Part shown: in pieces, positions 9,088-39,566 of the stretch | Layout of the letters: every line of letters begins with the position of its first letter | How positions within the stretch are numbered: the stretch's first letter is position 1 | The notes under the pieces: model-generated | Seen by the model: the letters and a program-made list of their open reading frames with translations, nothing else | Databases searched by the model: none | Told to the model about the DNA's origin: nothing | Assembly (NCBI GenBank): GCA_964543035.1 | Contig: CAZIVL010000001.1 | Span: forward strand, 122,000-185,999 | Source of the DNA: an uncultured Gammaproteobacteria bacterium | GTDB lineage: Bacteria; Patescibacteriota; Microgenomatia; CAZETR01; Amesbacteraceae | Reading direction: 5' to 3' | DNA length: 64,000 nt | Translations under genes and position numbers: made by a program

Positions 9088-9516
9088 TTAAAACCCAGTA
9101 GACCCTATTCCTCCTCTATCTTTATTTCCCAGTTTATCCACTTCTTCAATAATTACCTTCTCAAATTTTAAAACCATTATTTGTCCTACCCTCATACCCT
9201 TTTCTACTACCACCCGCTTTTTTGTAAAGTTTAAAGCCACAAACTTGTATTCATCGCTGTCACCTCTAAAGTCCCAATCACCAATCCCAATTCCAGCTGC
9301 ATTAATAAGACCCAGTTTATGAGTGGAGCTTCGAGCCGCCAGCATCACCCAACTCCCCTTTGGTACTTCAAGCGCAATGTTTAATGGGATATAGCCGATT
9401 GCGCCAGGAGCAATGGTCACCTTCTCACGAGCATAGACATCCATGCAAGCCGCCCCCTCAGTCTTATAACTGGGTAGTGGTATCGTTTTATCAAATCTTT
9501 TAACCTTTATTTTCAT
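9088..9516 (-). CDS. dut: dUTP diphosphatase
   Basis: Motifs GAACMD, RSS, GIGDWDFRGD and C-terminal RGGIGSTGF. Confidence 0.8.
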   Translation of the reverse strand: MKIKVKRFDKTIPLPSYKTEGAACMDVYAREKVTIAPGAIGYIPLNIALEVPKGSWVMLAARSSTHKLGLINAAGIGIGDWDFRGDSDEYKFVALNFTKKRVVVEKGMRVGQIMVLKFEKVIIEEVDKLGNKDRGGIGSTGF

Positions 9517-22767: not shown

Positions 22768-25700
22768 CTAATTCATCGCCTGAACTTTGAAGTCTTCCCA
22801 AACAAAGTGCAGGTTATCTATGGTTGTTTTAGTCTCGGGCAAGATTCTTGAAACGATAACATCGTTGCCAAATAGGTCGTTAATGACATCCCCTTCTTTG
22901 GTGAATATTTTTTCGGCAATCATTTCTTTGGCTTCAGCTGCGCCAATATAAACTGGTACATATTTTTTGCCACCGATATAGACTGGGTTAAAGCCATCAA
23001 CTGGGATCATTTCTTTGACTTCGGTAGGATAGCGTTTATCCATTAGGTAAAATTGTTTGACTACGCCTTCGGGTGTAGTGATTTTAACTATCTCACCTGC
23101 TTTTGGTGCAGCTTGTACTTGTTGGGTTTTATCCATAGGGTTTTCACTGGCCATAGTCGAGCTAAATCGAGCAAATTCAATAAATATGAAGGTAAATACA
23201 ACCATCATAACAGCGGGCGCAAACATGGAAACATAGTTCTTCTTGCCCGGAACAAATTGGCGCAATAGAAGTGAATTTCCAACAACGGAAATTGAACTCA
23301 GAGCCATAGCCAGCCCTGCGAGTTCCGGTTTGAGAACGAGTCCAGCAAATGCAAAGACACGGGCAGCCACGGGAATACCGATCACGTTATAAAACAGGGC
23401 AAAGAACATGTTTTGCTTTACTTTTTGCATGGTGGATTTGGAAAGGTCGATAGCGTGTACCACATCACGTAAGTCGTTCTTAATAATGACGATGCCTCCC
23501 GCTTCCATGGCCACATCAGTCCCTGAACCCATGGCAATGCCTAAATCAGCTTGAGCTAAAGCTGGCGCGTCATTAATACCATCTCCGACCATGGCTACCT
23601 TTTTTCCGGCATCCTGAAGCTTTTTCACTTCATTGGCTTTATCTTGTGGTAGGACTTCCGACAAGACATTGGTAATTCCAACTTGAGATGCAATGGCTTT
23701 AGCAGTTCGAGCGTTATCTCCCGTGATCATCCACACTTCAATACCAAGTTTTTGTAGCTTTTCTACTGCCTCTCGTGACGTTTCTTTGACTGTGTCGGCA
23801 ACTCCAATGATGCCCAAGATTCCGTCTTTAGTAGCCAGAGTCATCACCGTTTTACCTTGTTCTTCGAGTCGATTAATCTTTCGATCATACTTACCTACTT
23901 CTAGGCCAAGGGTGTCGGTCATGAGCTTTCTGTTACCAAAGTAGTAAACGGTGTCACCAATTTGACCTTTAACGCCGTGACCCGGAATGGCACTAAAGTT
24001 TTCGACACTACTTAAGGACACATTTTCTTCCTGAGCATAACTATAAATGGCTTCAGCCAATGGATGCTCGGATTGCTTCTCTAAGCTAGCTGAGATTTGC
24101 AGCACTTCATCTTCAGTAAAGCTGCCAAAGTCTTCAATATCTGTTACCTCGGGTTTGCCTTTTGTAATGGTTCCGGTTTTATCAAAAATAATGGCATTTA
24201 CTTTACAAGCCGATTCTAATGGTTCTCCACCTTTGACCAGTATTCCATGTTCAGCACCCTTGCCAGTTCCCACCATAATGGCCGTGGGTGTAGCCAAACC
24301 TAGAGCACAAGGACAGGCAATGACAATAACTGCTGTAAATGCCATTAAAGCAAAAGACAAAGTGGACCCAAGCAGGAAGTACCAGACACCAAAGGTAAGT
24401 AGAGCCACGATAATAACCGCTGGAACAAACCAAGATGAAATGCGGTCAGCAAAGGCTTGAATTGGCGCTTTTGAGCCTTGAGCGTCTTCGACTAATCGAA
24501 TAATTTGTGACAAAGTGGTTTCTGAGCCTATACGAGTGGCTTTGAATTCAAAACTTCCGGTTTTATTAATAGTACCTCCAATGACATTGTCGCCGGAATT
24601 CTTCTCAACGGGTAGACTTTCACCAGTAATCATTGACTCATCTATGGCTGACATACCTTTGAGAATGACACCATCAACCGGAACTTTTTCTCCCGGACGA
24701 ACGACAACAATGTCATCTTTCACGACCTGATCAACTGGAATATCAAGGGTACTGCCATTACGAACCACGCGCGCGGTCTTGGCCTGAAGCCCCATGAGTT
24801 TTTTAATTGCTTCAGACGTTCGACCTTTAGCTTTGGCTTCTAAAAACTTCCCTAATAGCACAAAGGTAATCAAGAATGCAGCAGTTTCAAAATACAGCTC
24901 AGGAATTTTGGCACCACCAAGTCCGATTAAAGAATCGTTTATGGCAAAGTATTTAATGAAATTGACGACACTGTAAAAGTAGGCTACAGAGGTGCCAATG
25001 GCGATTAAACTATCCATGTTAAAGGTACGCATACGAAGAGCCGACATCATGCCTTTATAGAATCCCGATCCGATGAAAAATTGCACCGGTGTTGCTAAAA
25101 CAAAAGAGATAACTCCCACCCATGGAAGTAGCAGCTTTGCGCCGGGAATAAAGTTGAAGAAATCAAACAACATAAAGTAAATCATGGGTAGTGACAAGAT
25201 AAAGCTAACTAGAAACCGTTTGTATTGGGACCTAATTTCGTTTTGTTGGCGAAGGGATTGTTCCTTTGTATCGGCTGTATCGGCAACCTCTGCTTTGTAT
25301 CCGGCTTTTACAACGGCTTGCAATAAATCCTGGTTTGATGCCTGAGACGGATCAAATACGACTGCAGCTTTTTCTGCCGCAAAATTAACCCGGGCTTCGG
25401 TAACTCCTGAAACCTTTTTTAATTGACGTTCAATTATTTGAGCGCAAGAAGAGCAGTGCATACCGAATATTGCTAAATTAGCCCGACCTGTTTTTTCGCT
25501 TTTAACAGCGGCGGATACAACTTCAGAAGCTGTACTTATGGGTTGTTGTTCTGTATCAGTCGTTGTATTTCCAAAGCGCAATTTGCCTTTAATGCTAAAT
25601 TGCCCATCGGCATCACGGCCAATTTTTCCATCAATTTCAACTTCCTGTGGAAATGATATTTGCGAAACATAAAGGGGGGTATTAGGAGCGAGTACTCCGT

Positions 25701-25956
25701 TAACTTGCCCATTTGCATGTCCGTTTGAGTGGACAGTGTCGCCCATAACTCTACCTTTATAGCCTGCAGTTTGAATTGCAGACAGAATTTTATCGCTAGT
25801 TACCTGTTGATTTCCGGCAACTAGAGTCCCAAGGCCTGATTTAAATTCCAAGTTCACATCCTTTACACCCGGAATTGAACTTAATTCGTCTTTGATTAAC
25901 AGCTCGCAGGAAGCACAGTGCATACCATCTACTTGAAATTGAATTTTTTGGTTCAT
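22768..25956 (-). CDS. copA: Cu(I)-translocating P1B-type ATPase with two N-terminal HMA domains and a roughly 200-aa C-terminal extension
   Basis: Two MHCxSC HMA motifs, TGES, CPC ([12 protein letters not shown]), DKTGTIT and [10 protein letters not shown]. An extra TM helix plus soluble tail follows the last canonical helix. Confidence 0.85.
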
Positions 25957-26186
25957 AGTGTCTCCTTTTGAGTCGCCTCATACGGCGTGCCGGTCAAACT
26001 TGCTTGAATTTGATCCAGGCTCAAATTTGAATTCGATTCGACCGTAGCCTTACTGGTTTTTAAATCAACGCTGACTGTTTGGACCCCATTTATGGCGCCA
26101 ATTCGTTTTTCTGAAACTTTTTTGCAAGCAGTGCAAGTAAGACCTGATAATGTAAATAGTTGTGTATACATGAGTATTCCTTTCAT
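25953..26186 (-). CDS. HMA-domain copper-chaperone-like protein
   Basis: A single CTAC metal-binding motif in an HMA-sized ORF; start overlaps the upstream gene. Confidence 0.6.
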
Positions 26187-27928
26187 TAAATAACCTTTAT
26201 TTGACCCCTAGGTGCTCCCATAGCACACGTAATGCTGTAAGTACCTTTCTTGGTTGGGGTAAAGTCAAAAGCTGTAACTTTACCCTTAGTGAAGACTTCA
26301 ATTTTGGACGTCAATCCAGGAAGAGCCACACTGCCCATGCAACCCTGGCCGTCTTCTTTGGCATCGATTTCAAAACGAACCGGCTCATTGACTTTAACGG
26401 TAAATTGAGTCGGCGAAATATCCCCCCGAACGGTGTAACTTGCTGTTATAACTTGAGCATTTGCAGAACTAACCTGAGATGTTTGTGACTGATTTATAGT
26501 GTTGGTCAAAGCTGGTTGAGTATTGAAGTTGGCGGGTATTGTCGTACTTTGGTTGCTAGTTCCTTCAACAACCGTAAATGAACCGGTATACATGCCCATG
26601 ATGCAAGAGAAATTGATAGTTCCAGTCTGGGTTGGCGTAAATTCAATGATGTTTTCACCCTTTTGTAATCCTTGACGGATACCGAGTTTTTGGGAAATGA
26701 TACTGGCTGCACAGGTGTATGAATCTTCGGAGGTGATGACCCAGCGAGTTGGCAGACCCTTTCGAATCGTAAACTTATTTGGTACATAGCCTCCAGAAAC
26801 TTGTCTCATCCGCACAACTTGGACACCCTCTATGATTGATACATTAGTGTCTTTAGTACCTTCAGCACTGGCCTTACTAGTAAATGCTCCTAACACAGAC
26901 ACTGCTGGGTTTAACCCCAGTAAATTCAAACCGTTCGAAATGTTAAATATAGCCAAAAGTATGACCACTACACCTACTGTTTTGAAAAAGAGACGAGCGA
27001 CAGAGCCCTTAATTGCCGAGGTTAAACCACCAACACCCAAAAGCCCTGGCGCTGTGCCGAGAGCAAAGACGCCCATGGTTAAGGCCCCGGCCAAGGCACT
27101 GCCCGAACTAATAGCGTAAAGTTGCATGGCTTGAGTAAAGCCACAGGGTAAAAAGAAAGTTAAGGCTCCCATGATGACGGCATTCTTATTGCTGTATTCA
27201 ACTTCTGCTCGATTTTTAACACCAAAGAATCGGCTGATTCCGGTAGGAAGCGTAAAGGATATCTTTTTTAAGAATGGGAATATTTCTATGAGCTGGCTGC
27301 CCAAAAGCAACATCACGATGCCAACCGCGACAGTCATAATACCCAAGGCAGAAGAAGATAACTGGAATAATGTACCGGCATAGCCAATTACTCCACCTAA
27401 AATAAAATAGGAAACAACTCTCCCCAAATTAAAGTACAAATGTGGTGTAAATTTCTCCATACCTGTAGCGTTTGGATGTTTCTCGGCAAAGCGTGCTGCC
27501 GCTCCTAAAACCAAGCCACCGACTAATGCCATACAGGTAGAAATTCCAGCGGTAAGCCCTACAAGAAATACGGTGGGTAAACTGGAATAATTATTGGAGA
27601 CATTGCTGACTAGGTTAAACAAACCCAAGCTTCGGGCAACCAAATACAAAACAATGGCTACAAAAAAAGCAATACCAAGTTCCTTGTAATCATATGGTTT
27701 TTTGGAGAAAAGTTCACGTTTTTCAACTCCAAGCATGTATCCTGCACGCTCCACTGCTCTTTGAACTGCTTGGTCATCAAGTACATTCTCGTAATGAATA
27801 AAGGCGTGGCCTTTGTGGTGATTAACTACCGCCTTGGTTACACCAGGAACTTTTTTGAGTTCGTCTTCAATTAAGATTTCGCAAGATCGGCAGTGCATGC
27901 CTTTGATAAGAATTTTGCAGTTTTGCAT
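26186..27928 (-). CDS. Fusion protein: HMA domain, DsbD_2/CcdA-like Cys-bearing TM domain and two cupredoxin-like beta-sandwich repeats ending C-x-MGM / C-AMG
   Basis: MHCRSCE HMA; TM core with paired Cys (ISTCMA, LPCGFTQAM); C-terminal repeats FSCIMGMYTGSF and ITCAMGAPRGQ. Paralog of 54512-55779. Confidence 0.55.
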   Translation of the reverse strand: MQNCKILIKGMHCRSCEILIEDELKKVPGVTKAVVNHHKGHAFIHYENVLDDQAVQRAVERAGYMLGVEKRELFSKKPYDYKELGIAFFVAIVLYLVARSLGLFNLVSNVSNNYSSLPTVFLVGLTAGISTCMALVGGLVLGAAARFAEKHPNATGMEKFTPHLYFNLGRVVSYFILGGVIGYAGTLFQLSSSALGIMTVAVGIVMLLLGSQLIEIFPFLKKISFTLPTGISRFFGVKNRAEVEYSNKNAVIMGALTFFLPCGFTQAMQLYAISSGSALAGALTMGVFALGTAPGLLGVGGLTSAIKGSVARLFFKTVGVVVILLAIFNISNGLNLLGLNPAVSVLGAFTSKASAEGTKDTNVSIIEGVQVVRMRQVSGGYVPNKFTIRKGLPTRWVITSEDSYTCAASIISQKLGIRQGLQKGENIIEFTPTQTGTINFSCIMGMYTGSFTVVEGTSNQSTTIPANFNTQPALTNTINQSQTSQVSSANAQVITASYTVRGDISPTQFTVKVNEPVRFEIDAKEDGQGCMGSVALPGLTSKIEVFTKGKVTAFDFTPTKKGTYSITCAMGAPRGQIKVI

Positions 27929-27948
27929 ATAAAATAAAGATAACCACC

Positions 27949-28131
27949 CTAATGCTTGTGGTTACCACCTTTCATCATAAGAATATGGAGAAGCGGACAG
28001 GCAAGGATGAATCCATAGGTGAGGACCGATCCTACTGGCAGCTTAAAAACAAATAATGCCAAGCCTCCAGCAACTAGTCCCAAGAGGCAGATAATCAAAA
28101 CAGGGTGAGCCTTGAGTATATTCATACTCAT
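27949..28131 (-). CDS. Small two-TM protein with C-terminal LACPLLHILM...HKH motif (DUF2933-like)
   Basis: Paralog of 37469-37675; both lie immediately downstream of a histidine kinase. Confidence 0.5.
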   Translation of the reverse strand: MSMNILKAHPVLIICLLGLVAGGLALFVFKLPVGSVLTYGFILACPLLHILMMKGGNHKH

Positions 28132-28149
28132 TACTGTAACGTCTGAGGA

Positions 28150-28166
28150 ATTAAGATTTTATGAAG
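28150..28166 (-). promoter_or_regulatory. Conserved island motif (minus-strand sense CTTCATAAAATCTTAAT), copy A
   Basis: The identical 16-nt core occurs at 32850 and 36179, each 23-33 nt upstream of a minus-strand start codon. Confidence 0.4.
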
Positions 28167-28170
28167 ATGT

Positions 28171-29559
28171 TTAACGGGGAAAGTTCACCATAATGGTAGT
28201 AACCTTTTTAGGAGTACTTTCAATAGTAATTGTGCCCCTATGGGCTTCAATAATAGATTTACAAATAGCCAGTCCTAATCCTGATCCAAAAGTTGTCACT
28301 TTTTTGCCACCCCGGTAGAAGCGGTCAAAGACATGGGGTAAGTCGGCTTTTGAAATACCTGGTCCAGTGTTGGTAATTTCAATTAAGTCTGACGATTTGG
28401 TTCTTGATAAGGTCACAGAGATTCTGCCCTTTTCAGGTGTATATTTGACAGCATTCTCTAAAAGATTAAAAAATGCCCGAAATAGCTTTTGGCGTTTTCC
28501 GGCAATCTCAATATGCTGTTTGATTTCCTCAATTACATAGATCTGTTTCGCCTCTGCCATTTTCTTGGTGATATCGACAAGTTCTCCTAGCATTTCCGAC
28601 AGGTCAACCCTTTCAGTGTTTAAAAGTGGCTTGTCTGATTCCGACCAGGCCAAATCCAAAACATCATTAACAGTTCCGGATAAATGATCTACATCAACCA
28701 ACGTTTCGTTTAGTGTGTGCTGGTACTCTTTGGCGGTTCTGTCTTTTGAAAGTGTTACTTCAATTGAGTTTTTTAACGTTGATAAGGGTGTGCGTAGTTC
28801 ATGAGCTACATCGCCAATAAATTGCCGTTCTCGAGTAAACGAATCTGAAAGTCTAGTGAGCAGTGAGTTAAACGACGTAGATAATTCTTCTAGTTCATCG
28901 CCTGTTTTGAATATATGAATCGGTTGAGATAAATTTGACAGCGAAATCTCTTTGAGCTTTAAAGACAGTTGGGTTACGGGTTGCAACGCTTTTTTTGAAA
29001 TAATAAGGCCTCCGATAAGAGACAGTACGCTGGCTATACCAAAGATTAAGACAAGTTCTGAGGACAGCTTATTTAGCGAGTCAGTAATGACATCTGTCGG
29101 GTGACCGACTAAAACGAGGTTGTCTGTATTTTCATTTGTTGAAACCGGAAAGATTCCCACACGCATGTGAGTAGTTCCGATCGTTAGTTCAATAAATGAA
29201 GAATTGATTAGATTAGCCGATTTTTCAAAAACGTCTTTAAGTGTTTTTGTACTCGACTCAACTATTTGAGAAGAGCTTAGAATTTCCCCGTTTCTGTTGG
29301 CAATGACAATAAGCATTCCCGGCATTTCCGAAAACTCCCTACTTAGTTGTTCTTGGGGGAAAGAAGTATGCATGCCTACACTTTGTTGTGCAATTAGATC
29401 GACTATTTGCTCACCATGTTGAGTAATTTCTTGATCGGTTTGGGCTAGTAACGTTTGCTTAGTCACGACATAAAATATGCTAAATACTACTGCCGCGCTA
29501 ACAAAGAAGGTTACAAAATACCACAGTGATAATCTGAATCGAACGCTTTTCAGGTTCAT
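28171..29559 (-). CDS. Sensor histidine kinase (CusS/CopS-like)
   Basis: Two TM helices, HAMP, HisKA (AHELRTP) and HATPase (GSGLGLAI). Confidence 0.8.
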   Translation of the reverse strand: MNLKSVRFRLSLWYFVTFFVSAAVVFSIFYVVTKQTLLAQTDQEITQHGEQIVDLIAQQSVGMHTSFPQEQLSREFSEMPGMLIVIANRNGEILSSSQIVESSTKTLKDVFEKSANLINSSFIELTIGTTHMRVGIFPVSTNENTDNLVLVGHPTDVITDSLNKLSSELVLIFGIASVLSLIGGLIISKKALQPVTQLSLKLKEISLSNLSQPIHIFKTGDELEELSTSFNSLLTRLSDSFTRERQFIGDVAHELRTPLSTLKNSIEVTLSKDRTAKEYQHTLNETLVDVDHLSGTVNDVLDLAWSESDKPLLNTERVDLSEMLGELVDITKKMAEAKQIYVIEEIKQHIEIAGKRQKLFRAFFNLLENAVKYTPEKGRISVTLSRTKSSDLIEITNTGPGISKADLPHVFDRFYRGGKKVTTFGSGLGLAICKSIIEAHRGTITIESTPKKVTTIMVNFPR

Positions 29560-30233
29560 GATTTTTGCTCCGAAACTTTAAACCCTACACCATGGACTGT
29601 TTGAATTAATTTCACTTTGTCACCTCCGTCAATTTTTTTGCGCAAAGTGGTGACAAACACATCAACGACATTGCTCATACTGTCAAAGTTATAGTCCCAA
29701 ACATGTTCGGTAATCATGGTTCGGGTCACGACTTCATTTGGGTGACTCATTAATAGTTCCAGAATGGCAAATTCTTTGGGAGTGAGAGAAAGGTCTTTTC
29801 CACTTCTGACTACGGTGTGTTTAATGGGGTCAAGTTCCAAGTCAGCAACTTTTAGTGTAGGAGATGCGCTGTTGTGCGTTCTCCTAATCAAGGCCTGCAA
29901 ACGTGACTTTAATTCGATAAAAGAAAAAGGTTTGGACAAATAATCATCTGCGCCACTATCAAGTCCTTGAGATATGTTTTCAACAGTCCCCTTTGCAGTC
30001 AGCATCAATATGGGAGATTTATTCTTTTTGTTGCGCAAAGTTTTACATACCTGAATGCCGTCGACTTTTGGCAGCATGATATCTAAAATTATGCAGTCGT
30101 AGGTTTCCGATTCGGCCAAATACAGCCCTTCTTCACCATCAAAAGCTTGATCGACAGCAAATCCAGACTCCATCAGACCTTTTTTAAGAGAATCGGAAAG
30201 GCGCTTCTCGTCCTCAATAACTAGTATTCTCAT
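29556..30233 (-). CDS. OmpR-family response regulator (CusR/CopR-like)
   Basis: Receiver domain (DCIILDIMLP, LMLTAKG) plus a winged-helix domain. Confidence 0.85.
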   Translation of the reverse strand: MRILVIEDEKRLSDSLKKGLMESGFAVDQAFDGEEGLYLAESETYDCIILDIMLPKVDGIQVCKTLRNKKNKSPILMLTAKGTVENISQGLDSGADDYLSKPFSFIELKSRLQALIRRTHNSASPTLKVADLELDPIKHTVVRSGKDLSLTPKEFAILELLMSHPNEVVTRTMITEHVWDYNFDSMSNVVDVFVTTLRKKIDGGDKVKLIQTVHGVGFKVSEQKS

Positions 30234-30284
30234 AGGTATATTGTATAACTTTTGCGGTTTTTCGGCTTAAATCAGCAAATTTTC

Positions 30285-31247
30285 TTATACTCCACATCCA
30301 CCATTTCGTTTTGGCGGCTCAGCCACTATTCCTTGGTCTATTAACCAACGCTTTGCTTGTTGAGAACCAGATGCCGATGAGAAGTCTTTAGACAACAGGG
30401 TTCTGGCATCAATCTGATCAAAGCTTTTACCTTCTTTGTTTTTGAAGTAAACGGCCAGATCATAGTAATTGCCGGGGAACCAGTAAGCATTAATATATTT
30501 GGAAGTATTGTACATATCCTCTTCTGAAGCACCATTTGCAGCCATTATCTCCAATATTCCCAACAGAGCCATTCCGTGATTACAATCAGGAAAAGCTGTC
30601 GAATTGTTACAGCAAGGCCTAAAAATGCTGGCAGCAACCTTTTCGACTAATTCTTCTTGAGCGGCAGTCAAAGGTATCAAGTTTCCTTTGGAGTAGTATT
30701 TCATAGCATCGCTTTTTCCAAGCGTCCAGCCACCGGTTGAAGCAAAGTTTTTTACTCCCTCAATGCCACCGTACTGAGTCATTTCCCCTTCAGTTAATAG
30801 CTTAGTTTTATTGGAAAGCCCCACTGCCCAAAAAAAGTTCAAAAGAAAATACGAATTTTCCTGATTGATAACAATGGTTTCATCCGAACCGTCAGTGAGG
30901 ATTCGCTCAAGATCTTCATAGAACGGCTTTCCAGACTTAAGGTACGCATCTTTAAACTTTTGTAAATCAATCACACCTTGATCAACCATTTTAGGACCCA
31001 ACTGGCCGTAAGAAACATTAAGGGAAATGCCCCTAGAAGGATTAATCTCCTCAAATATCGCTTGTGATTCTTGAGAAGAAGCTTGTGAACCTGTTACAAC
31101 TGTGGCTTGTGTCAATTTATCTTTCCTAAACACCGCCTTTATATCGGTAGCCTTTTTAGTTAGGGCCGGGAGGATCTGAAATAAATTAAGACCCACACTT
31201 ACAAACAAAAGCAACACAATTTTGTTTTTTAGAATTTTATTCTTCAT
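30285..31247 (-). CDS. Hypothetical secreted protein with Cys cluster PCCNNS-x7-DCNHG
   Basis: Signal anchor; a single conserved-looking Cys/His cluster that could bind metal. Confidence 0.4.
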   Translation of the reverse strand: MKNKILKNKIVLLLFVSVGLNLFQILPALTKKATDIKAVFRKDKLTQATVVTGSQASSQESQAIFEEINPSRGISLNVSYGQLGPKMVDQGVIDLQKFKDAYLKSGKPFYEDLERILTDGSDETIVINQENSYFLLNFFWAVGLSNKTKLLTEGEMTQYGGIEGVKNFASTGGWTLGKSDAMKYYSKGNLIPLTAAQEELVEKVAASIFRPCCNNSTAFPDCNHGMALLGILEIMAANGASEEDMYNTSKYINAYWFPGNYYDLAVYFKNKEGKSFDQIDARTLLSKDFSSASGSQQAKRWLIDQGIVAEPPKRNGGCGV

Positions 31248-32061
31248 GAGATTTTCCTTTGTATTTAAGTAACTTGTAGAAAATAAAAATAACTATGGCG
31301 AAAACTACTAAATCCACAATTGGGTTTTTAAAGTACTTGGCAATTTCAAAGACAACCAAACGAATTGTTTGACTGTATCCTTCCATCTGATCCATTTGAA
31401 TTTTTCCTTGATAGTTAAAATAGGCAATCAAAATTCCAGTCAAGAAGAAGATTCCTGCTGCCAACCACTTGAAAACGTCGTAAATCTTTTTGCGGTTTTT
31501 GCCGAACTTGTGTGATGCCTTGTCGTAAAAAAGAGACAGGACAAAGAGCGGCATCACGATACCTAAAACATAGGCGAATGAAACAATGGCTGCTTGTAAT
31601 AGTGTGGGTGATAGTGACGTTAAAGTCACAGCGGCAAACAATACAGGAGCACAACATGCTGAAGTCAGTCCGGACATTAGCCCTAACCCAAAGACACTTG
31701 CGGTATTAACCCTGGGATTTGCTTCCCCACCCACATGGAAGATTTGGGGAAGGTGAAATATAGGCTTGATGGTCGAAATACCCATGAGTACCATTACTAA
31801 GGCGCCCAGGTAATAAATCTGAGTATGGTACGCATCAAGTAAATAAATGGCTGAGCGAATGCCTAAAGAAATGGGTACTAAAATAAAAGCCAAACCTAAG
31901 GCAAAAATCAGAGTGTAGTACATAACTCGTTTATGGTTTTTAAAGATTGATCCCAGGTAAGATGGAAATAGAAACGTGATGCAACAGGGTGCAAATAGTG
32001 CCATAACCCCTGCTAAAAATGAGGCTGTGAGAGAGATGCCGAATAAAAAGCCTGTGTCCAT
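31237..32061 (-). CDS. CcdA/DsbD-like polytopic membrane protein with two intramembrane Cys-Cys pairs
   Basis: APCC in TM1 and SACCAP in a later helix (MerT/CcdA-like); six or more TM helices. Confidence 0.5.
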   Translation of the reverse strand: MDTGFLFGISLTASFLAGVMALFAPCCITFLFPSYLGSIFKNHKRVMYYTLIFALGLAFILVPISLGIRSAIYLLDAYHTQIYYLGALVMVLMGISTIKPIFHLPQIFHVGGEANPRVNTASVFGLGLMSGLTSACCAPVLFAAVTLTSLSPTLLQAAIVSFAYVLGIVMPLFVLSLFYDKASHKFGKNRKKIYDVFKWLAAGIFFLTGILIAYFNYQGKIQMDQMEGYSQTIRLVVFEIAKYFKNPIVDLVVFAIVIFIFYKLLKYKGKSHEE

Positions 32062-32558
32062 TAGTTTACCCTCGCTTGAATTGAAAACGATAATTTAGAA
32101 TTTTGCGGATCATTGGTAGTTACATAGACTTCACGGGTGACAAGTCCGTTAACTGGCATTGTGGCTGGTCGGTAAGTCAGGCGTACGGTGGCTGAATCGC
32201 CCGGGGCAATTTCGGTCACAAAACCGCTTTGCTTGTGCATGCCGAATTCTTTACTGGTTTCGCCTTTATAAATTATTTGTCCGGCGGTGCAACCACAGCT
32301 GGTATTGACGTTTAATATTTGTAGAGGCTTAGTGCCACCATTGGTGAGAGTAAAGTCTTGCACCTTAACATCTGAAAGCTTAAGGTCACCGACATCAAAA
32401 AATCGCTCAGAGACTTGGGCTATCGGACGGTCAGAGTCTGTTGCTGAGTAAGCTGCATTTGTAGGAGTGGGTTTTTGATTACCGCTAAACAGAAAAGCCG
32501 CTCCTACCACCATGATTATCAGAATAAATATATAAATAAGAACAGTTTTGGTTGACAT
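32061..32558 (-). CDS. DUF1573-like secreted protein (SCGCT motif)
   Basis: N-terminal anchor and a TSCGCTAG motif as in DUF1573. Confidence 0.5.
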   Translation of the reverse strand: MSTKTVLIYIFILIIMVVGAAFLFSGNQKPTPTNAAYSATDSDRPIAQVSERFFDVGDLKLSDVKVQDFTLTNGGTKPLQILNVNTSCGCTAGQIIYKGETSKEFGMHKQSGFVTEIAPGDSATVRLTYRPATMPVNGLVTREVYVTTNDPQNSKLSFSIQARVN

Positions 32559-32559
32559 A

Positions 32560-32826
32560 TTAATTCAAATACCTAAAGCTTTTGACTATTTCTTGAACGT
32601 AATAGGCACTATTGTCTCCTTTTAAGCCTAAGCTGCACTCAACAACATAATTGCGAATTAACAAATCGGATCCGTCTTTAATTTCTTGGCGAACTAGTCT
32701 AGTTAATCGAAGAGCCTCGTTACAGTTATTATCTTTCTCAATAAGTGACATGACTATGTTTAAGCCACTTTGTGCGTGTTCTAGTTTCTCTATAACCTTT
32801 TTGGTACTCGCATTTTTCAATCTCAT
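32560..32826 (-). CDS. CsoR/RcnR/CstR-family (DUF156) metal- or persulfide-sensing repressor
   Basis: Helical roughly 88-aa protein with Cys at the positions of the CsoR family's Cys ligands and Tyr/Asn in place of the usual His ligand (CstR-like). Confidence 0.55.
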   Translation of the reverse strand: MRLKNASTKKVIEKLEHAQSGLNIVMSLIEKDNNCNEALRLTRLVRQEIKDGSDLLIRNYVVECSLGLKGDNSAYYVQEIVKSFRYLN

Positions 32827-32849
32827 GAGCTAATGCTACAAAGGCAGGT

Positions 32850-32866
32850 ATTAAGATTTTATGAAG
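32850..32866 (-). promoter_or_regulatory. Conserved island motif, copy B (upstream of the CsoR-like gene)
   Basis: The 16-nt core ATTAAGATTTTATGAA shared with copies A and C; 23 nt upstream of the start at 32826. Confidence 0.4.
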
Positions 32867-32946
32867 GGGACCTTGCTTTAAACTAGGAGGAAGAGAACAA
32901 AAACAGCAACCTATTAAGTCGGGTGCGTGTACATATCTTTCAGAAA

Positions 32947-33213
32947 TCAAGTCTTAATTTTGCTAAAGTAGTTGTAAACTACCGCAAAAATGTATCCTAT
33001 AAGCCATGCGCTAGCAACAGATGTTACTAGACCAAGAACAAAAGAACCTGGGGAAAGGCTCCATTGTGAACTTAATTGCAACCCATGGAACCATGATTGT
33101 GCAATGGACATGGACAAATCTGGAAAAAAGGTAAGGGCAAGCCTACATACTACATAAAATATGCCAACTGTTACTGCAGCGGCATTAGCTGTAGCGTTTG
33201 GTAAATGTTTCAC
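32947..33213 (-). CDS. Small two-TM hypothetical membrane protein
   Basis: ORF with two hydrophobic helices. Confidence 0.35.
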   Translation of the reverse strand: MKHLPNATANAAAVTVGIFYVVCRLALTFFPDLSMSIAQSWFHGLQLSSQWSLSPGSFVLGLVTSVASAWLIGYIFAVVYNYFSKIKT

Positions 33214-33572
33214 TAATACTCACCTCCCTTGCTAAAATACTGATATGAGCCTTGGATCATCTGCTTCACACACCAACGAGCATACATATTTCCAAATAGT
33301 TTTCCAAGCCAAGTGTGTTTCTGAGGCATTTTGTAATCGATAAAGACCCGCAAACGGGATTCATTCCCTTGCGGTGTAATTTCAATGCCCATCTGATACC
33401 GACCAATAACTATCAGCTTTGGATTGCCAACTGTTTGCCAGGTCTTGGCAAGAGACGGTTCATAGCGAGTGACTACTTCATCAAGAGATAACCTTATCCC
33501 AAAGGCAGTTCCCGACATACGAATATGCGATCCCACCTTTTGGCCGTTATCCTGGTCTACCCAGGTCTCCAT
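33213..33572 (-). CDS. SRPBCC (Bet v1-like) fold protein, possibly N-terminally truncated
   Basis: Short for this fold; a C8 homopolymer sits immediately upstream of the start. Confidence 0.3.
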   Translation of the reverse strand: METWVDQDNGQKVGSHIRMSGTAFGIRLSLDEVVTRYEPSLAKTWQTVGNPKLIVIGRYQMGIEITPQGNESRLRVFIDYKMPQKHTWLGKLFGNMYARWCVKQMIQGSYQYFSKGGEY

Positions 33573-33701
33573 TTTTCCCCCCCCATCATCAATGAAGTCT
33601 TAGCCATATGCGAGGAAAAAAGTTTATGATTATCTACAAAAGCAAATAATTGTTGTGGAGAAGTTGGTATTAGTCGGTTGTCTTCGTAAAACATACTTAA
33701 G

Positions 33702-35957
33702 TTAAACCGTTACAAGATCCTGCTCTGCCCGGTTTAATAACACTGCATTCGTAGCTACTATGATTGATGAAATACTCATCAGAAGAGCTGCGAATTCAGG
33801 TCGAAGCTCAATTCCATATTTGGGGTATAGCACTCCAGCAGCAACTGGAATAGCTAATAAGTTATAAATTGACGCCCAAAAAAGATTTTGCTTCATTTTT
33901 ACAACTGTTGCTTTTGATAATCTGATGGCACGTAAAATGTCGGCCGGGTCTGAACGCATTAGTACGACTTTGGCCGTTTCTATAGCCACATCAGTTCCAG
34001 CTCCAATTGCTATGCCTATATCAGCTTGGGCTAACGCCGGGGCATCATTTACACCATCGCCAACCATGGCTACAAACTTGCCCTCCTGTTGAAGCTTTTT
34101 AACATATGAAGCTTTATCTTCTGGTAAAACTTCAGAAAATATTCTATCGATATCTAACTGCTTCCCGATCGCCTCAGCAGTCTTTTTGTTATCACCAGTA
34201 ATCATAGCTACTTCGAGTCCTAGTTCCTTCATACGAGAGATTGCTACCTTGGCATTTTCTTTTATTGGGTCGGTGGCCGCAGCAACTCCTGCAACTTTTT
34301 TGTCCACAGCGAGTATCATGATTGTCTTTCCCTCAGAAAGAAGTTTATCAATATCCTGTTGTAGCGGAGAAATATCAACGCCTGAATCATTCATTAGTTT
34401 TAATGTGCCAACGAGGATATGTTTACCGTCTACAAGTGCCTCCACGCCGTGGCCAGCTAAATTGTTAAATTTTTCAACTTTAGTGGAGATTGTTAACTCT
34501 CTAGTCTTTGCCTCTTCTAAAATGGCCAGGCTCAATGGGTGAGATGACTTTACTTCAGCTGCAGCATCAAGCTCAATTATTTGGTTCTCGTTAAATCCTT
34601 TAGCGGCTATAATGTCGGTTATCTTTGGTTTGCCTTCCGTAAGAGTCCCGGTTTTATCAAGGACAATAGCCTGTATTTTTGAAACCTGTTCAAGTGTCGG
34701 CGCATCCTTAATCAAAATATTATGCTTGGCCCCAAGACCAGTCCCCACGGCAACCGCAGTAGGCGTAGCCAACCCAAGAGCATCAGGACAGGCGATAACC
34801 ACGGTAGAAATGGCAAAGGTCAGTGCCACCATAAGCGGCTGACCCAATACAAAAAACCATATTACAAACGTCAATAGACCCCCACCCACCGCAACAATAA
34901 CTAAATACTTGGCAAATCTATCGGCAATCTTTTGTCCAGGAGCTTTAGAATTTTGGGCCGTTTCTACCATTTTGACAATTTGTGCGAGCGCCGTATCCTC
35001 ACCAACCTTTGTAGCCTTAAACTTTACCGATCCGGAGGTATTGATTGACCCACCAATTACCCTATCTCCAACGCTTTTAGAAACAGGCAGTGATTCTCCG
35101 GTCACCAACGATTCATCAATGGCTGTTTCACCCTCAATAATCTCTCCGTCAACAGGAACCTTGTCTCCAGGCTTTAAAATGAGAATATAGTCAAGTTTTA
35201 CGTCTGAGGTCGAAATTAAAGTCTCTTTATGATCTTTCCAAAGCCTGGCTTGAGGTGGGACAAGATCAAAAAGGGCTTGAAGTGCATCTGTCGTTCCACG
35301 TCTAGATTTCATTTCCATCCAGTGTCCAAAAAGTACAAAAGTGGTAAGCATGGCTGCTGCTTCATAAAACGACTCCTCACTCCCAAGGAGTGTTAAAACA
35401 ACACTAAATACGTAGGCTGCAGTAATGCCAACGGCGATTAACACCGCCATATTGAGCGTTTTCGCTTGCAGAGCTTTGTATGTGGAGAAGAGAAATATCC
35501 ATCCCGAGTAAAAATACACAGGGGTAGTTAAAAGAAACATGATCCAATTAGCCGGAATGGGAGTAGGGAGGCTTAGTCCTAGGATGTTAGTCCCCAGCGG
35601 GGAATAGGCAATAATTGGCAGTGTCAGTATAAGTGCCACAAAAAACTTATTACGGATGTCTTCCTCCATCAGTTTTGCCATTTCTCGCCCCGCCAAGCCT
35701 CCATGCTCCATGCCCATTGCCATGGTCATACTCATTTTGAATTTTTCCCAAAATGACATTTGAGCTACAGGCTTCATCACATGGTCTTTATGATCCATGG
35801 CAGCATGATCCGTCGGATTTCCTGTAGCACCTTTTACTGGGACTAATGTCATTCCACACTTAGGGCAGGTTCCAGGAGCGTCTTTTACCACGTCCGGATG
35901 CATTGGACAGGTGTATCTTGAAGCCAATTTCAAATGGGTGTGTTGTGCATGATTCAT
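33702..35957 (-). CDS. P1B-type heavy-metal ATPase with atypical CPD TM motif, His-rich N-terminus and a CPMHP...CPKCGM metal-binding domain
   Basis: TGES, IACPDALGLATP (the gat codon was checked in the DNA), DKTGTLT, GDGVNDAPAL, YN in TM7 and MSISS in TM8. N-terminal HTH...DHAAMDHKDH and YTCPMHPDV...GTCPKCGM. Confidence 0.85.
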   Translation of the reverse strand: MNHAQHTHLKLASRYTCPMHPDVVKDAPGTCPKCGMTLVPVKGATGNPTDHAAMDHKDHVMKPVAQMSFWEKFKMSMTMAMGMEHGGLAGREMAKLMEEDIRNKFFVALILTLPIIAYSPLGTNILGLSLPTPIPANWIMFLLTTPVYFYSGWIFLFSTYKALQAKTLNMAVLIAVGITAAYVFSVVLTLLGSEESFYEAAAMLTTFVLFGHWMEMKSRRGTTDALQALFDLVPPQARLWKDHKETLISTSDVKLDYILILKPGDKVPVDGEIIEGETAIDESLVTGESLPVSKSVGDRVIGGSINTSGSVKFKATKVGEDTALAQIVKMVETAQNSKAPGQKIADRFAKYLVIVAVGGGLLTFVIWFFVLGQPLMVALTFAISTVVIACPDALGLATPTAVAVGTGLGAKHNILIKDAPTLEQVSKIQAIVLDKTGTLTEGKPKITDIIAAKGFNENQIIELDAAAEVKSSHPLSLAILEEAKTRELTISTKVEKFNNLAGHGVEALVDGKHILVGTLKLMNDSGVDISPLQQDIDKLLSEGKTIMILAVDKKVAGVAAATDPIKENAKVAISRMKELGLEVAMITGDNKKTAEAIGKQLDIDRIFSEVLPEDKASYVKKLQQEGKFVAMVGDGVNDAPALAQADIGIAIGAGTDVAIETAKVVLMRSDPADILRAIRLSKATVVKMKQNLFWASIYNLLAIPVAAGVLYPKYGIELRPEFAALLMSISSIIVATNAVLLNRAEQDLVTV

Positions 35958-35969
35958 ATAAATTTAGTT

Positions 35970-36145
35970 TACTCCTCTTTTCTTTCATCTCTGGGAATCC
36001 AGTGTTCAGGATGAGCGTCAAATATTTCTTTGTCTTGGGTAGTGCAAAAATAATAATTTTTCCCCAAATAGGTTGAAACCGCTTTCATTTCATTCTTGGG
36101 TTTTTTCATCCCACAGACGATATCTTGGACAATTTCATCTTGCAT
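35970..36145 (-). CDS. YHS-domain small metal-binding protein (58 aa; below the ORF-track cutoff)
   Basis: Translated by hand: MQDEIVQDIVCGMKKPKNEMKAVSTYLGKNYYFCTTQDKEIFDAHPEHWIPRDERKEE. The CGM...YYFC YHS signature is present; a GGAGGG RBS precedes it; it lies 12 nt upstream of the ATPase start. Confidence 0.6.
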
Positions 36146-36178
36146 ATTAATCCCTCCGCTTAATGATACTAATTCTTC

Positions 36179-36194
36179 ATTAAGATTTTATGAA
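36179..36194 (-). promoter_or_regulatory. Conserved island motif, copy C (upstream of the YHS-ATPase operon)
   Basis: The same 16-nt core, 33 nt upstream of the YHS start codon. Confidence 0.4.
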
Positions 36195-36260
36195 AAACGT
36201 AACCAATGCTGAACCTACTACAATCAATAGTAGCAATATCATGTTGGAAAGGAAAGATTG

Positions 36261-36929
36261 TCACTGACTTCGAAGAGCTTTTCCGTGTTTTAGCGGCTCT
36301 GGAGTACTCACTAAGCGACTTAACGAAGGAACAAATCCAGGGACTACTTTCTTATACATACCGTATTCGTTTCCGAATCTCTCTTGTAACTCTTTCTCTT
36401 CAGCTCTGGCGAGTCCTACATATCGAAAAACGAGGATTGGAGCCATGGCTAAAGTAATCAAAGTTGGCCACTGAAGGAGAAAACCAAAAATAATCAGCAC
36501 AAAGGCTAGGTACTGAGGGTGTCTTATATATCTGTAGACACCTTTAACCGCGAGTTTCTGTTTCTTTTGCGACTCGTAGAGGACTTCCCATGCCTTACCT
36601 AGAAGCATAAGCCCGCCGATAATTAAAGTATAGCTTATAATATGAAGGAGGCTGAAATGTGGGTCACTTTTTATACCTAAAAGCGTATTGAGCAAGTGAC
36701 CATTGTTATGAGTAAAATCTAGCCCTAAACGATTACCAAAGAAAGAAGTCAGCAGGTAAATAGTTAACGGAAATCCATACATCTCTGCAAAGAGTGCGAC
36801 AATAAACGCTCCAAAGATTTTATAAGTTTTCCAATCAGTTTTCGTTCTTGGTTTAAATGCGCTTTTTATGAAATAGAGGAAAAGCACAATATTAAACAGT
36901 ACTAGAAACCAGTTACCGTAATCATTCAT
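36261..36929 (-). CDS. Isoprenylcysteine carboxyl methyltransferase / phospholipid methyltransferase family membrane protein
   Basis: GVYRYIRHPQY...EE..L...FG.EY motif pattern. Confidence 0.65.
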   Translation of the reverse strand: MNDYGNWFLVLFNIVLFLYFIKSAFKPRTKTDWKTYKIFGAFIVALFAEMYGFPLTIYLLTSFFGNRLGLDFTHNNGHLLNTLLGIKSDPHFSLLHIISYTLIIGGLMLLGKAWEVLYESQKKQKLAVKGVYRYIRHPQYLAFVLIIFGFLLQWPTLITLAMAPILVFRYVGLARAEEKELQERFGNEYGMYKKVVPGFVPSLSRLVSTPEPLKHGKALRSQ

Positions 36930-36994
36930 ATACGTGTAGTGTAACAGGGGATAGGTTAAGAAATTATGAGTTTCATCCTAGGTAAATATTAAAA

Positions 36995-37020
36995 ATCACC
37001 CTCGTGGTTTTGAGGGTGAT
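36995..37020 (-). terminator. Rho-independent terminator hairpin (9-bp stem ATCACCCTC/GAGGGTGAT, 8-nt loop) with flanking T-runs
   Basis: Read directly; lies downstream of the minus-strand gene 37106-37381 and is followed on the minus strand by TTTTTAATA. Confidence 0.45.
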
Positions 37021-37105
37021 TTTCATTGAAGTGCTACTCGTGAGTATTATGTTGTAGGACTTCTGCAGCGACTTTGACAGCAGGTCATATGGTTTCCTCC
37101 TTTCA

Positions 37106-37381
37106 TTAAGTTTCCTTACTCACCGTGTCATTTAAATGGCTACATTCCTGTATATCATTTCCATGATGTTGTTTCATCATCGTATTTATTTGTTGTTTCG
37201 TATCCAATGAAAGACTGTTCATATGATCAGCAGGACTTTTCGAGTCGTGCATCTGCGTCATATGTACCGAAGCTTCTTGTGCACTCACGGACTGCGTTTT
37301 AAGACTTACAGTTAATATTGCCACTGCAAAGAGGACTATTGCCATAATGCTGCCACTTTTTATTATTTGTTTGAGATTCAT
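37106..37381 (-). CDS. Small secreted Met/His-rich protein (candidate periplasmic Cu-binding)
   Basis: Signal peptide; HMTQMHD, ADHM and MMKQHHG clusters. Confidence 0.4.
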   Translation of the reverse strand: MNLKQIIKSGSIMAIVLFAVAILTVSLKTQSVSAQEASVHMTQMHDSKSPADHMNSLSLDTKQQINTMMKQHHGNDIQECSHLNDTVSKET

Positions 37382-37468
37382 TTTTATTCTTTCTTCTTCA
37401 GTTTTAACAACTAACTTAAGTATACTTTTAGACCTATTAAGTCTTTGTGAGTAAAAGATGAACTTTTA

Positions 37469-37675
37469 TTAATGTTTATGTTTTTCATCCTTTATCATCC
37501 AAATATGTAGCAGTGGGCAAGCAAGAACTAAACCAAGTAACACAATACTTTCCAGGGACACTTTAAAGATAACACCTGCAATTAATGCTATTGCCAGTAA
37601 TGCAACCCACATTAATAGATTATTTCTGCTGCTTAAATGAACTTTTAACTGCTCCATATAATTTGCCTGGTTCAT
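37469..37675 (-). CDS. Small two-TM protein with LACPLLHIWM...HKH motif (paralog of 27949-28131)
   Basis: Same architecture and C-terminal motif as the other copy; immediately follows the second histidine kinase. Confidence 0.5.
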   Translation of the reverse strand: MNQANYMEQLKVHLSSRNNLLMWVALLAIALIAGVIFKVSLESIVLLGLVLACPLLHIWMIKDEKHKH

Positions 37676-37736
37676 AAGATTTTTCTTTATAAAACTACTT
37701 TACTAATCATGGGCTTTAGAAATGATGAAGGAGACG

Positions 37737-38744
37737 TTAAGATATATTAATCTTTGGCAAAGATACCGCTACGAAAGTGCCTTTACCCACTTTACTCGTA
37801 ATATCAATAGTACCCTGATGGGCTTTTACGACTGCTTGAACTATAGCCAGTCCTAAACCAGAACCAAAAATTTTATCAGTTCTGGAGCCTCGGTAGAAAC
37901 GCTCAAATACGTATGGAAGATCTTCCTTGTGTATTCCCAAGCCATTATCCTTAACCTGAAATACTGCTAGGTTATTTTTAGTACGAAGGTCAATAGTAAT
38001 ACTGGCGTTATTTGGAGAAAACTTCACTGCATTATCGACAATATTCAAAAACGCTCGAAACAATTTATCTTTACGACCGGAAATTATCACATCCTTATCG
38101 ATTGAACCATTAATAATCAGATTTTTATCGAATGCTAATTTAGTGGCAACTTCTTTTACTTCTGTCACCACCTCAGATATATTAATCGTGGTCGCTCCTT
38201 TTTGGGCATCCTCAGTGTTGGACCAAGCTAAATCCAGAATGTTTTTTATAGTAGTTGAGATCCTGTTGGAGTCAGACAGGGCTTCCTCAATTGCAATTTT
38301 ATAGTCTTCTTTTGATCGATCCTTTGAGAGTGTTAACTCAAGCGATGCCCGCTGAACGGATAACGGAGTTTTAAGTTCATGAGCCACATCTCCAATGAAT
38401 TGACCTTCTCGCCTAAATGCTTCATCAAGGCGACTCAGTAGTTGATTAAATGCATGTGCCATCTCACCAATTTCGTCGTCTCGATTTATCTCGGTAATCT
38501 TCTCATTAAGGTTTTTGCTGGTTATTGTTTGTATTTTTGACGACAAATAGGTTAACCCGTCAGTCAATTTTCGAATAATAAAAAGACCCTGCAATGCCAG
38601 AACAAATACCAACAAAAAGTAGACAATATCCCCATTGGGTAGTCGTAATATATGAATACCTATATAAAAAAATGCAGTAATCGTTAATAATGAAGTTGCA
38701 TACCAAAGAATAAGTCTATTTCGAAAAGTGTTAAATCGTTTCAT
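37737..38744 (-). CDS. Sensor histidine kinase (second CusS-like paralog, short sensor loop)
   Basis: HisKA AHELKTP; HATPase GSGLGLAIV. Confidence 0.8.
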   Translation of the reverse strand: MKRFNTFRNRLILWYATSLLTITAFFYIGIHILRLPNGDIVYFLLVFVLALQGLFIIRKLTDGLTYLSSKIQTITSKNLNEKITEINRDDEIGEMAHAFNQLLSRLDEAFRREGQFIGDVAHELKTPLSVQRASLELTLSKDRSKEDYKIAIEEALSDSNRISTTIKNILDLAWSNTEDAQKGATTINISEVVTEVKEVATKLAFDKNLIINGSIDKDVIISGRKDKLFRAFLNIVDNAVKFSPNNASITIDLRTKNNLAVFQVKDNGLGIHKEDLPYVFERFYRGSRTDKIFGSGLGLAIVQAVVKAHQGTIDITSKVGKGTFVAVSLPKINIS

Positions 38745-38750
38745 GTGTAG

Positions 38751-39431: not shown

Positions 39432-39566
39432 ATGGTATACCTTGAGAGATGAAGATATTATTAAGAAATCGTTTGGGGTTGATTAAGAGGATACCATCGA
39501 AACACAAAACCAATTAAGATAATTCCAAGAATTCAGACGAGAAAAACTCTTAATTTTCTTTATAAA

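Follow-up and report, generated by a model that had tools for sequence, protein, structure and literature searches.

A metal-resistance island and its recurrent promoter element

The DNA analysed here (the window) is the 64-kb stretch at positions 122,000 to 185,999 of contig CAZIVL010000001.1, which belongs to a metagenome-assembled genome of the candidate phyla radiation (CPR). Its metal-resistance island occupies 22768–39465, and the minus strand is the coding strand for all island genes. By Pfam and NCBIfam assignment, the island contains two paralogous two-component systems, each a response regulator (RR) with a histidine kinase (HK), namely RR1/HK1 (28171–30233) and RR2/HK2 (37737–39425). 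It further encodes two P1B ATPases, proteins with HMA, YHS and HMBD domains, DsbD_2–cupredoxin, DsbD_TM, DUF1573 and DUF5676 proteins, an ICMT-like methyltransferase and two DUF2933-like mini-proteins. A 16-nt motif, ATTAAGATTTTATGAA, recurs upstream of the operons of this island, and we consider it likely that the island's own CopR/CusR-like OmpR-family regulators, RR1 and/or RR2, recognize it as their binding box.

Three exact copies of the motif lie on the plus strand, at 28150–28165, 32850–32865 and 36179–36194 (sites A, B and C), just where a first-pass annotation of this DNA, made by reading the letters, had placed them. With up to three mismatches allowed the window contains seven matches; 1.9 are expected, and a count of seven was not reached in any of 100 dinucleotide shuffles. 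An independent repeat search of the window recovered the same motif family together with a fourth member at 39445–39465 (site D). The flanks of sites A–C diverge past about 21 nt, as they do across the repeat family, so the conserved element is short and a longer repeat is excluded.

Read along the coding strand, the motif is (C/T)TTCAT-AAAAT-CTTAAT, a pair of directly repeated hexamers with an 11-bp period; sites A–C contain no dyad symmetry. The consensus over the window and its relatives, t-CTTCAT-AAwwT-CTTAAT, is 17 bp long and can be described as a 7-bp repeat unit (TCTTMAT) plus an A/T-rich spacer of 4 bp, which together give the 11-bp period. All strong sites have the build CTTCAT-N5-CTTAAT with the 11-bp period, in agreement with the direct repeats of 6–7-bp half-sites at a centre spacing of 10–11 bp that characterize OmpR/PhoB-family boxes, and some sites have three phased repeats. 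Because 11 bp is one helical turn, the arrangement fits a head-to-tail dimer of winged-helix domains. The relaxed pattern YTTMAT-N5-YTTMAT has five matches in the 64 kb, four of which are island promoters on the gene strand; the fifth, antisense within an open reading frame (ORF) of 763 aa, is a chance match.

The first-pass annotation had put the cores 23–33 nt upstream of the operon starts. These limits hold for site B (23 nt to ATG 32826) and site C (33 nt to ATG 36145), but at site A the distance is 18 nt to ATG 28131, or 24 nt to the likelier start, ATG 28125. A degenerate relative of the element had also been proposed near 37675. Only AAAATCTTA is in common there, and we rejected this fourth site because its first half-site is absent and it overlaps the start codon. 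Sites A and B share four more bases just past the box, CTTAAT-(t/a)CCT (28146–28149 and 32846–32849), and several relatives have tyCC or cttcc at the same position; the recognition site may thus extend beyond the box.

Conservation of the box among Microgenomates

The comparison set, 245 kb in all, comprised the window and nine non-redundant Microgenomates loci picked by RR homology (63–78% identity). RR1 homologues at 68–74% identity carry the names Woesebacteria, Roizmanbacteria, Amesbacteria, Daviesbacteria, Gottesmanbacteria and Microgenomates group. A search of a genome collection with RR1 returned mostly distant RRs of other phyla, with L003 (Woesebacteria) the only close relative among the matches listed; the distant loci were used as a negative control set and in the comparison with actinobacteria described below.

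A motif search in relatives, which the first-pass annotation had suggested as a check on its own proposal, supports the core of that proposal. In the comparison set 38 boxes lie on the RR strand and two on the opposite one, against 2.4 ± 1.7 on both strands of dinucleotide shuffles, and the box keeps a fixed promoter position before island genes. The composite of box, N10–11 and TAnnnT has 30 matches, where shuffles give an expectation of 0.10. The 1.3-Mb control set, made up of 79 RR loci of other phyla, contained only six boxes and two composites. The synteny of the island is kept across the loci of the relatives, and every composite match listed for the window and the relatives is on the RR strand, immediately before an island gene or the regulator gene. 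The genes behind the boxes always belong to island families: the RR itself, the CsoR-like protein, DUF2933, HMA-DsbD_2-cupredoxin, ICMT, DsbD_TM, YHS and DUF1573. The HMA, YHS, HMBD, P1B ATPase, cupredoxin and DsbD-type proteins of the window are candidate targets of the metal-resistance kind, and the loci of the relatives additionally encode multicopper oxidase, YtkA and DUF305. The RR gene has a box of its own in at least eight loci, including L003, L096, L099, L101, L106, L122 and L144. Both OmpR-family regulators of the window likewise stand behind a box, RR1 within unit B and RR2 behind Box D.

A position weight matrix (PWM) was built from 39 sites of the relatives only and scanned over both strands of the window (128 kb). 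Its top four matches are sites A, B, D and C, in this order (scores in Table 1); the next match scores 12.7, at 52836, and is followed by sites F and E. The matches at 52836 and 53783 were rejected as chance, since both lie antisense within the 763-aa ORF and have no −10 element at the right offset.

We also started from the motif and scanned public metagenome contigs for CTTCATAANNNCTTAAT-N10-11-TANNNT, a pattern of 17 specified bases. Of the 80 exact matches, nine are on contigs with genes for island proteins (identity at least 55%). All nine of these island-type matches have an ATG 6–7 nt past the −10 element, versus five of the 71 others (Fisher p=8.6e-9), and the RR is also encoded on five of the nine, which are short. 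It is the full architecture, and not the bare pattern, that is specific to this island type. The anatomy of the sequence, the statistics, the conservation and the positional link to island and regulator genes in the relatives are established.

Two peculiarities of individual relatives are recorded here. In L095 (Roizmanbacteria) a hairpin-rich, repeat-like insert of about 200 nt (9806–10000) lies between the box and −10 element (9773–9806) and the RR start; a small mobile element and a structured leader are both possible readings of it. In L096 and L101 the half-sites CCTCAT/CCTAAT occur together with the regulator helix ..FIAQ(I/L)R, a co-variation that we did not count as evidence because it comes from a single lineage and CCT half-sites are found elsewhere too.

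Promoter geometry and probable leaderless starts

The offsets of TAnnnT behind the box peak sharply, with 24 cases at 11 nt and six at 10 nt, which together account for 30 of the 38 boxes. An ATG stands at a short fixed distance past the −10 element at 25 of 42 non-redundant sites, the distance being 6–7 nt with one exception at 8 nt; it is 6–7 nt past the hexamer in promoters A, B and D of the window. Such spacing suggests leaderless mRNAs, and the transcripts of many island promoters are probably leaderless. With the predicted start site fixed by the spacing between −10 element and ATG, the box would lie at about −40 to −24, which would be the class II position of an activator, overlapping the −35 region about 10 bp before the −10 element.

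The same kind of start is seen elsewhere in the window. TAnnnT followed after 6–7 nt by ATG is found at 18 of the 61 ORFs of at least 90 aa, versus 3.5% of all window ATGs, with examples at 6032, 6661, 16455, 17730, 20738, 50306 and 56581, and a Shine-Dalgarno-like motif precedes only 15 of the 61. Leaderless mRNAs appear to be common in the source Microgenomates genome, at about 30% of the window genes. A scan of the window for consensus sigma-70 promoters and simple terminators gave counts equal to the shuffle expectation; it recovered no island promoter and missed the hairpin at 36997–37018. Within unit B, RR1 has a box-less TACAAT + 6 nt + ATG of its own (30233–30245, minus strand) in a 52-nt gap, which may be a constitutive internal promoter for basal expression of RR1 and HK1.

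Individual sites

Boxes are present at four or more promoters (A–D), and probably at six. Their coordinates are collected in Table 1, together with the predicted −10 elements, the units behind them and the regulator genes.

Table 1. Boxes, predicted −10 elements, transcription units and candidate regulators in the 64-kb window
Feature	Position	Strand	Description
Box A	28150–28166	−	CTTCATAAAATCTTAAT; 4 nt past the HK1 stop codon; relatives-only PWM score 30.0, top match of the window
Predicted −10 of promoter A	28133–28138	−	TACAGT, 11 nt past Box A
Unit A	22768–28131	−	DUF2933-like mini-protein / HMA-DsbD_2-cupredoxin / HMA / CPC P-type ATPase; downstream of Box A
Box B	32850–32866	−	CTTCATAAAATCTTAAT; PWM score 25.0
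Predicted −10 of promoter B	32833–32838	−	TAGCAT, 11 nt past Box B, 6 nt before ATG 32826
Unit B	28171–32826	−	CsoR-like / DUF1573 / DsbD_TM / 320-aa / RR1 / HK1; downstream of Box B
Box C	36179–36195	−	TTTCATAAAATCTTAAT; PWM score 18.9
Predicted −10 of promoter C	36163–36168	−	TATCAT, 10 nt past Box C
Unit C	32947–36145	−	YHS / HMBD-CPD P-type ATPase / 119-aa / DUF5676; downstream of Box C
Box D	39449–39465	−	CTTAATAATATCTTCAT; CTTAAT-aatat-CTTCAT, half-sites swapped; upstream of RR2-HK2; PWM score 23.9
Predicted −10 of promoter D	39432–39437	−	TACCAT, 11 nt past Box D, 6 nt before ATG 39425 (MRILAIEDD...)
Box E (tentative, weakest)	37714–37741	−	CTTAAC-gtctc-CTTCAT-cattt-CTAAAG; PWM score 10.5 (37725–37741)
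Box F (degenerate)	36955–36971	−	ACTCATAATTTCTTAAC; PWM score 10.9
Predicted −10 of promoter F	36938–36943	−	TACACT, 11 nt past Box F; then 8 nt to ATG 36929
RR1	29556–30233	−	OmpR/PhoB-family response regulator, Pfam Response_reg + Trans_reg_C; candidate binder
HK1	28171–29559	−	Sensor histidine kinase paired with RR1; periplasmic domain; TIGR01386
RR2	38751–39425	−	RR1 paralogue, 67% identity; candidate binder
HK2	37737–38744	−	Short sensor kinase by domain and family matches
CsoR-like 88-aa protein	32560–32826	−	Diverged member of the CsoR/RcnR family, encoded first in unit B; rival binder judged unlikely

At promoter A, ATG 28125 lies 7 nt downstream of the −10 element, as a leaderless reading would have it, and the annotated ATG 28131 only 1 nt downstream. 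The CsoR-like gene behind Box B has homologues that are preceded by a box in L003 (6302), L083 (7423), L086 (7394) and L099 (1726); in L088, a locus without a CsoR-like gene, the box at 7272 precedes DUF1573. Unit C has a short leader with a Shine-Dalgarno sequence, GGAGGG (36152–36157), ahead of ATG 36145, and the YHS gene of L101 has a box at 17820. The swapped half-site order of Box D (CTTAAT...CTTCAT) is found before RR genes in five lineages including the window; boxes with this order precede the RR gene in L003 (9962), L099 (9962), L096 (9925) and L101 (9962).

Boxes F and E are weaker. The gene downstream of Box F (ATG 36929) encodes an ICMT/PEMT-like membrane methyltransferase, whose homologues in L083 (13081) and L167 (1661) have clear boxes. 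Just before Box F and after a 91-aa gene there is a terminator-like hairpin, CACCCTC-N8-GAGGGTG with a T-run (36997–37018, minus strand). Box E consists of three 11-bp-phased repeats over the HK2 stop codon, before the second DUF2933-like mini-protein (ATG 37675), and TAAAGT (37697–37702) lies 11 nt past its third repeat. An analogous triple repeat follows the HK gene of L003 at 12075–12102.

Regulators and other proteins of the island

The best NCBIfam match of both response regulators is TIGR01387, the heavy-metal RR family, with 258.9 bits for RR1 and 266.2 bits for RR2 (cut-off 279.2); HK1 scores 274.3 bits against TIGR01386 (cut-off 292.55). The PhoB model gives the island regulators 193 bits, far under its cut-off of 296 bits. 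RR1 and RR2 have nearly identical recognition helices, SNVVDVFV[T/S][T/A]LR. Read by eye rather than computed, HK2 seems to have two transmembrane helices and hardly any external loop.

The two DUF2933-like mini-proteins (27949–28131 and 37469–37675, minus strand) have a C-terminal CPL(L/M)H...HKH tail and directly follow a sensor kinase. The same order is seen in relatives (L003 12149–12367, L083 12124–12312, L095 13573–13752), and these small genes are often missed or mis-started by gene callers. As HK2 has almost no extracytoplasmic loop, one might speculate that the mini-protein is an accessory metal sensor.

The 88-aa protein of unit B is a distant member of the CsoR/RcnR family. Its family profile matches M. 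tuberculosis CsoR (PDB 2hh7) with E=2.6e-10; PF02583 gives E=0.012 for the 88-aa protein alone and matches six of six aligned family members. With respect to the Cu(I) ligands, the relatives have H-x3-C and lack the first Cys, and the window copy has the first Cys with Tyr in place of His, a ligand set that is not canonical for Cu(I).

In the 751-aa P1B ATPase (33702–35957, minus strand) the transmembrane metal-binding motif is CPD, not CPC or CPH (VVIACPDALGLATP), and the N-terminus carries an HMBD (CPMHP). The other ATPase, of 1062 aa, combines CPC with two HMA domains and has a long additional C-terminal region of about 150 aa.

Comparison with characterized systems

Among sites defined by experiment, the CopR box of Corynebacterium glutamicum comes closest. 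CopR of this organism binds TGAAGATTTnnTGAAGATTT, as determined by electrophoretic mobility shift assay and mutagenesis, and phosphorylation increases the binding (PMC3140484). In a direct comparison the plus strand of site A, TTAAGATTTTATGAAGATGT, is identical to TGAAGATTTGATGAAGATTT of C. glutamicum at 17 of 20 positions, with an equal 11-bp period. Both boxes are tandem direct repeats with the half-site T(G/T)AAG(A)TTT on one strand, and the window element matches the actinobacterial CopR-type box (TGAAGATTT-N2-TGAAGATTT, half-site TGAAG(ATTT) at 11 bp) with T for G in one half-site. C. glutamicum CopR is, as we propose for the window, an OmpR-family regulator of a copper two-component system that controls its own operon and a copper-ATPase/oxidase cluster. 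The two systems differ in layout. In C. glutamicum the only site lies between divergent genes, 59–78 bp from the start of copR and well away from the second promoter, whereas the Microgenomates island has four to six sites, each at a fixed 10–11 bp from a −10 element. The Microgenomates half-sites are moreover unequal (CTTCAT / CTTAAT), unlike those of the CopR box, and the hosts are CPR bacteria. The likeness concerns the sequence of the site; the proteins examined were actinobacterial relatives at 45–50% identity. In five of these (L041, L074, L033, L070 and L024), two to three CTGAAG/CTGAAC-N5 repeats with 11-bp spacing lie 100–200 nt before the RR gene; they resemble the C. glutamicum CopR box but are turned the other way round with respect to the RR gene. 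The actinobacterial recognition helices are nearer to the Microgenomates helix than a proteobacterial helix is.

The geometry of the box matches that of PhoB on pho boxes and of other OmpR-family class II activators. The pho box consists of 7-bp direct repeats with a 4-bp A/T spacer and lies 10 bp before the −10 element. The window box has the same 7+4+7 build with an 11-bp period and an A/T-rich spacer, an equal distance to the −10 element, the class II position at −35, and the same repeat orientation on the coding strand (CTGTCAT in pho, CTTCAT in the window). It differs in half-site sequence and in function, metal resistance rather than the phosphate regulon, and PhoB belongs to another OmpR subfamily.

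The AgrR, CopR and CusR regulators of proteobacteria bind the box ATKACANNNNTGTMAT, and the location of the AgrR box fits a type II activator (PMC7380067). The island regulators share with them the subfamily given by the best hidden Markov model match (TIGR01387, CusR, HprR), a site near −35, copper/silver resistance targets and, as proposed here, positive autoregulation. The sites themselves are built differently. The proteobacterial cop/cus box, ATKACA-N4-TGTMAT (consensus from PMC7380067), is a 6-4-6 inverted repeat with the half-site TGTMAT, and the window box, which repeats CTTMAT directly, does not conform to it. The recognition helices differ as well, with ..DVAVKRLR in a proteobacterial relative and ..DVFVTTLR here.

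CsoR systems have in common with the island a CsoR-family gene within the regulated region and the copper theme. Their operators are GC-rich pseudo-palindromes, unlike the window box, which has no dyad. A canonical operator of this type, a GC-rich inverted repeat by a csoR-family gene, is seen only beside the true CsoR of L096. There ATACCCCCCGGGGGTAT (9366–9382) precedes a true PF02583 gene that is divergent from a MacB/FtsX-type ABC efflux operon, and the ATPase of this efflux operon has a YHS domain.

Alternative explanations

Two other readings start from features of the motif itself or of a neighbouring gene. The first-pass annotation had pointed to a −10-like TAAAAT inside the motif, which would make the motif a core promoter with transcription starting within or just past CTTAAT. 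Box positions 5–10 indeed fit TAnnnT at 24 of 42 sites, and promoters of the source genome appear to be mainly −10-dependent. Conservation, however, is highest in the flanking half-sites, whose C, TT and A are invariant by construction of the search pattern and which are strongly enriched over shuffles, and the spacer varies among relatives (AATTT, AATTC, AAATT and others; as hexamers, TAATTC, TAATCC, CAAAAT, TGATTT and CGATTT). A separate TAnnnT lies 10–11 nt downstream of 30 of the 38 boxes, and a start inside the motif would leave both this hexamer and the ATG 6–7 nt beyond it without explanation. We regard an internal −10 as quite unlikely. The 88-aa CsoR-like protein, which the first-pass annotation had named as a possible regulator, could instead have the box as its operator and repress all units until copper is bound. 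It is a divergent member of the right family and its own gene lies behind Box B. Tetramers of the CsoR family, on the other hand, use GC-rich inverted repeats, as the canonical operator of the true CsoR in L096 illustrates, and the box is an AT-rich direct repeat; there are also loci in which boxes are present and a homologue of the 88-aa protein is absent, over about 20 kb each in L088, L095 and L101 and about 15 kb in L106. The incomplete Cu(I) ligand set of the protein adds to these objections, and a CsoR operator is very unlikely.

A regulator of the RR type might bind the box and act as a repressor, blocking polymerase at about −40 to −24 until a signal releases it. The box overlaps the polymerase footprint, and the −35 element seems dispensable in this genome, so that an activator is not obviously needed. 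Against this, characterized regulators of the CopR/CusR/PhoB type bind in the phosphorylated state and activate from this very position (PMC3140484; PMC7380067), and resistance genes need to be induced under metal stress. The six −10 elements of the window are non-consensus (TACAGT, TAGCAT, TATCAT, TACCAT, TACACT and TAAAGT), which fits activator dependence, an argument tempered by the TATAAT in the RR promoters of relatives. Repression is unlikely in our view. The motif might, finally, have no regulatory role, having recurred by chance or being left over from a small mobile repeat. It is short and AT-rich, and exact matches to the pattern do arise by chance in AT-rich metagenomic DNA. Shuffled sequences never reached the observed count, though, the flanks are not shared past about 21 nt, the strand bias is pronounced, and the element is kept at orthologous promoter positions even where the RR proteins are only about 70% identical. 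Chance or a mobile repeat is effectively refuted by the conservation, target and PWM results.

Several observations weigh against the assignment of the box to RR1 and RR2. Most of the comparison loci were chosen through the RR, so the co-occurrence of RR and box is partly built in, and the link between the two is one of association. The scan of the source genome was confined to the 64-kb window. Both regulators narrowly miss the curated TIGR01387 cut-off and so fall outside the family threshold. In the metagenome scan, 71 of the 80 matches are chance occurrences in AT-rich DNA, and the bare pattern is not globally unique. The spacer AAAAT is identical at three sites of the window, an identity that the consensus alone would not demand. 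The match to TTGACA averages 2.7/6 in island promoters and 2.9/6 in the non-island leaderless-type promoters of the window; we dropped the argument that island promoters specifically lack a −35 element, as they do not differ in this from other leaderless-type promoters. Since the absence of a −35 element is not distinctive, activator dependence is unreadable from the promoter alone.

A proposed copper-stress regulon

The proposal of the first-pass annotation that a shared cis-element places these operons under one regulator is strongly supported by the comparative data, with the RR as the candidate regulator. From the features described above we infer which protein binds, that it activates and does not repress, that a metal is the signal and that initiation is leaderless. 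In the mechanism that we propose, copper or silver stress would activate the kinase or kinases, and the phosphorylated regulator would bind boxes A–F. Acting from about −40 to −24, a PhoB-like class II position, the bound regulator would switch on six transcription units that span the entire island, 22768–39465. With both regulator–kinase operons among the targets, the system would be positively autoregulated. The mechanism is conventional, an OmpR-family activator box of a metal-resistance two-component system, and holds no surprise for the specialist.

We lean somewhat towards the broader view that this is a copper-stress regulon common to the Microgenomates lineage, in which one CopR-like two-component system drives every unit of a conserved island through regulator-dependent, largely leaderless promoters. 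The literature that we searched describes no regulator binding site or regulon for CPR bacteria, and it yielded nothing usable on leaderless mRNAs in Patescibacteria or on a cyanobacterial CopR site.

Transcription regulation in uncultured CPR/Patescibacteria is almost unknown. The present analysis yields a testable cis-element, with a 17-bp consensus, a fixed promoter geometry and defined families of target genes, and a candidate regulator suited to expression and in vitro testing. Both may aid the annotation of promoters, true start codons and small genes in metagenome-assembled genomes of Microgenomates. If the proposed regulon is real, it would be, as far as the literature shows, the first cis-regulatory code and regulon for CPR bacteria, and leaderless initiation would be common in them. 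The half-site TGAAG/CTTCA, common to this box and that of actinobacterial CopR, would then imply an ancient recognition code.

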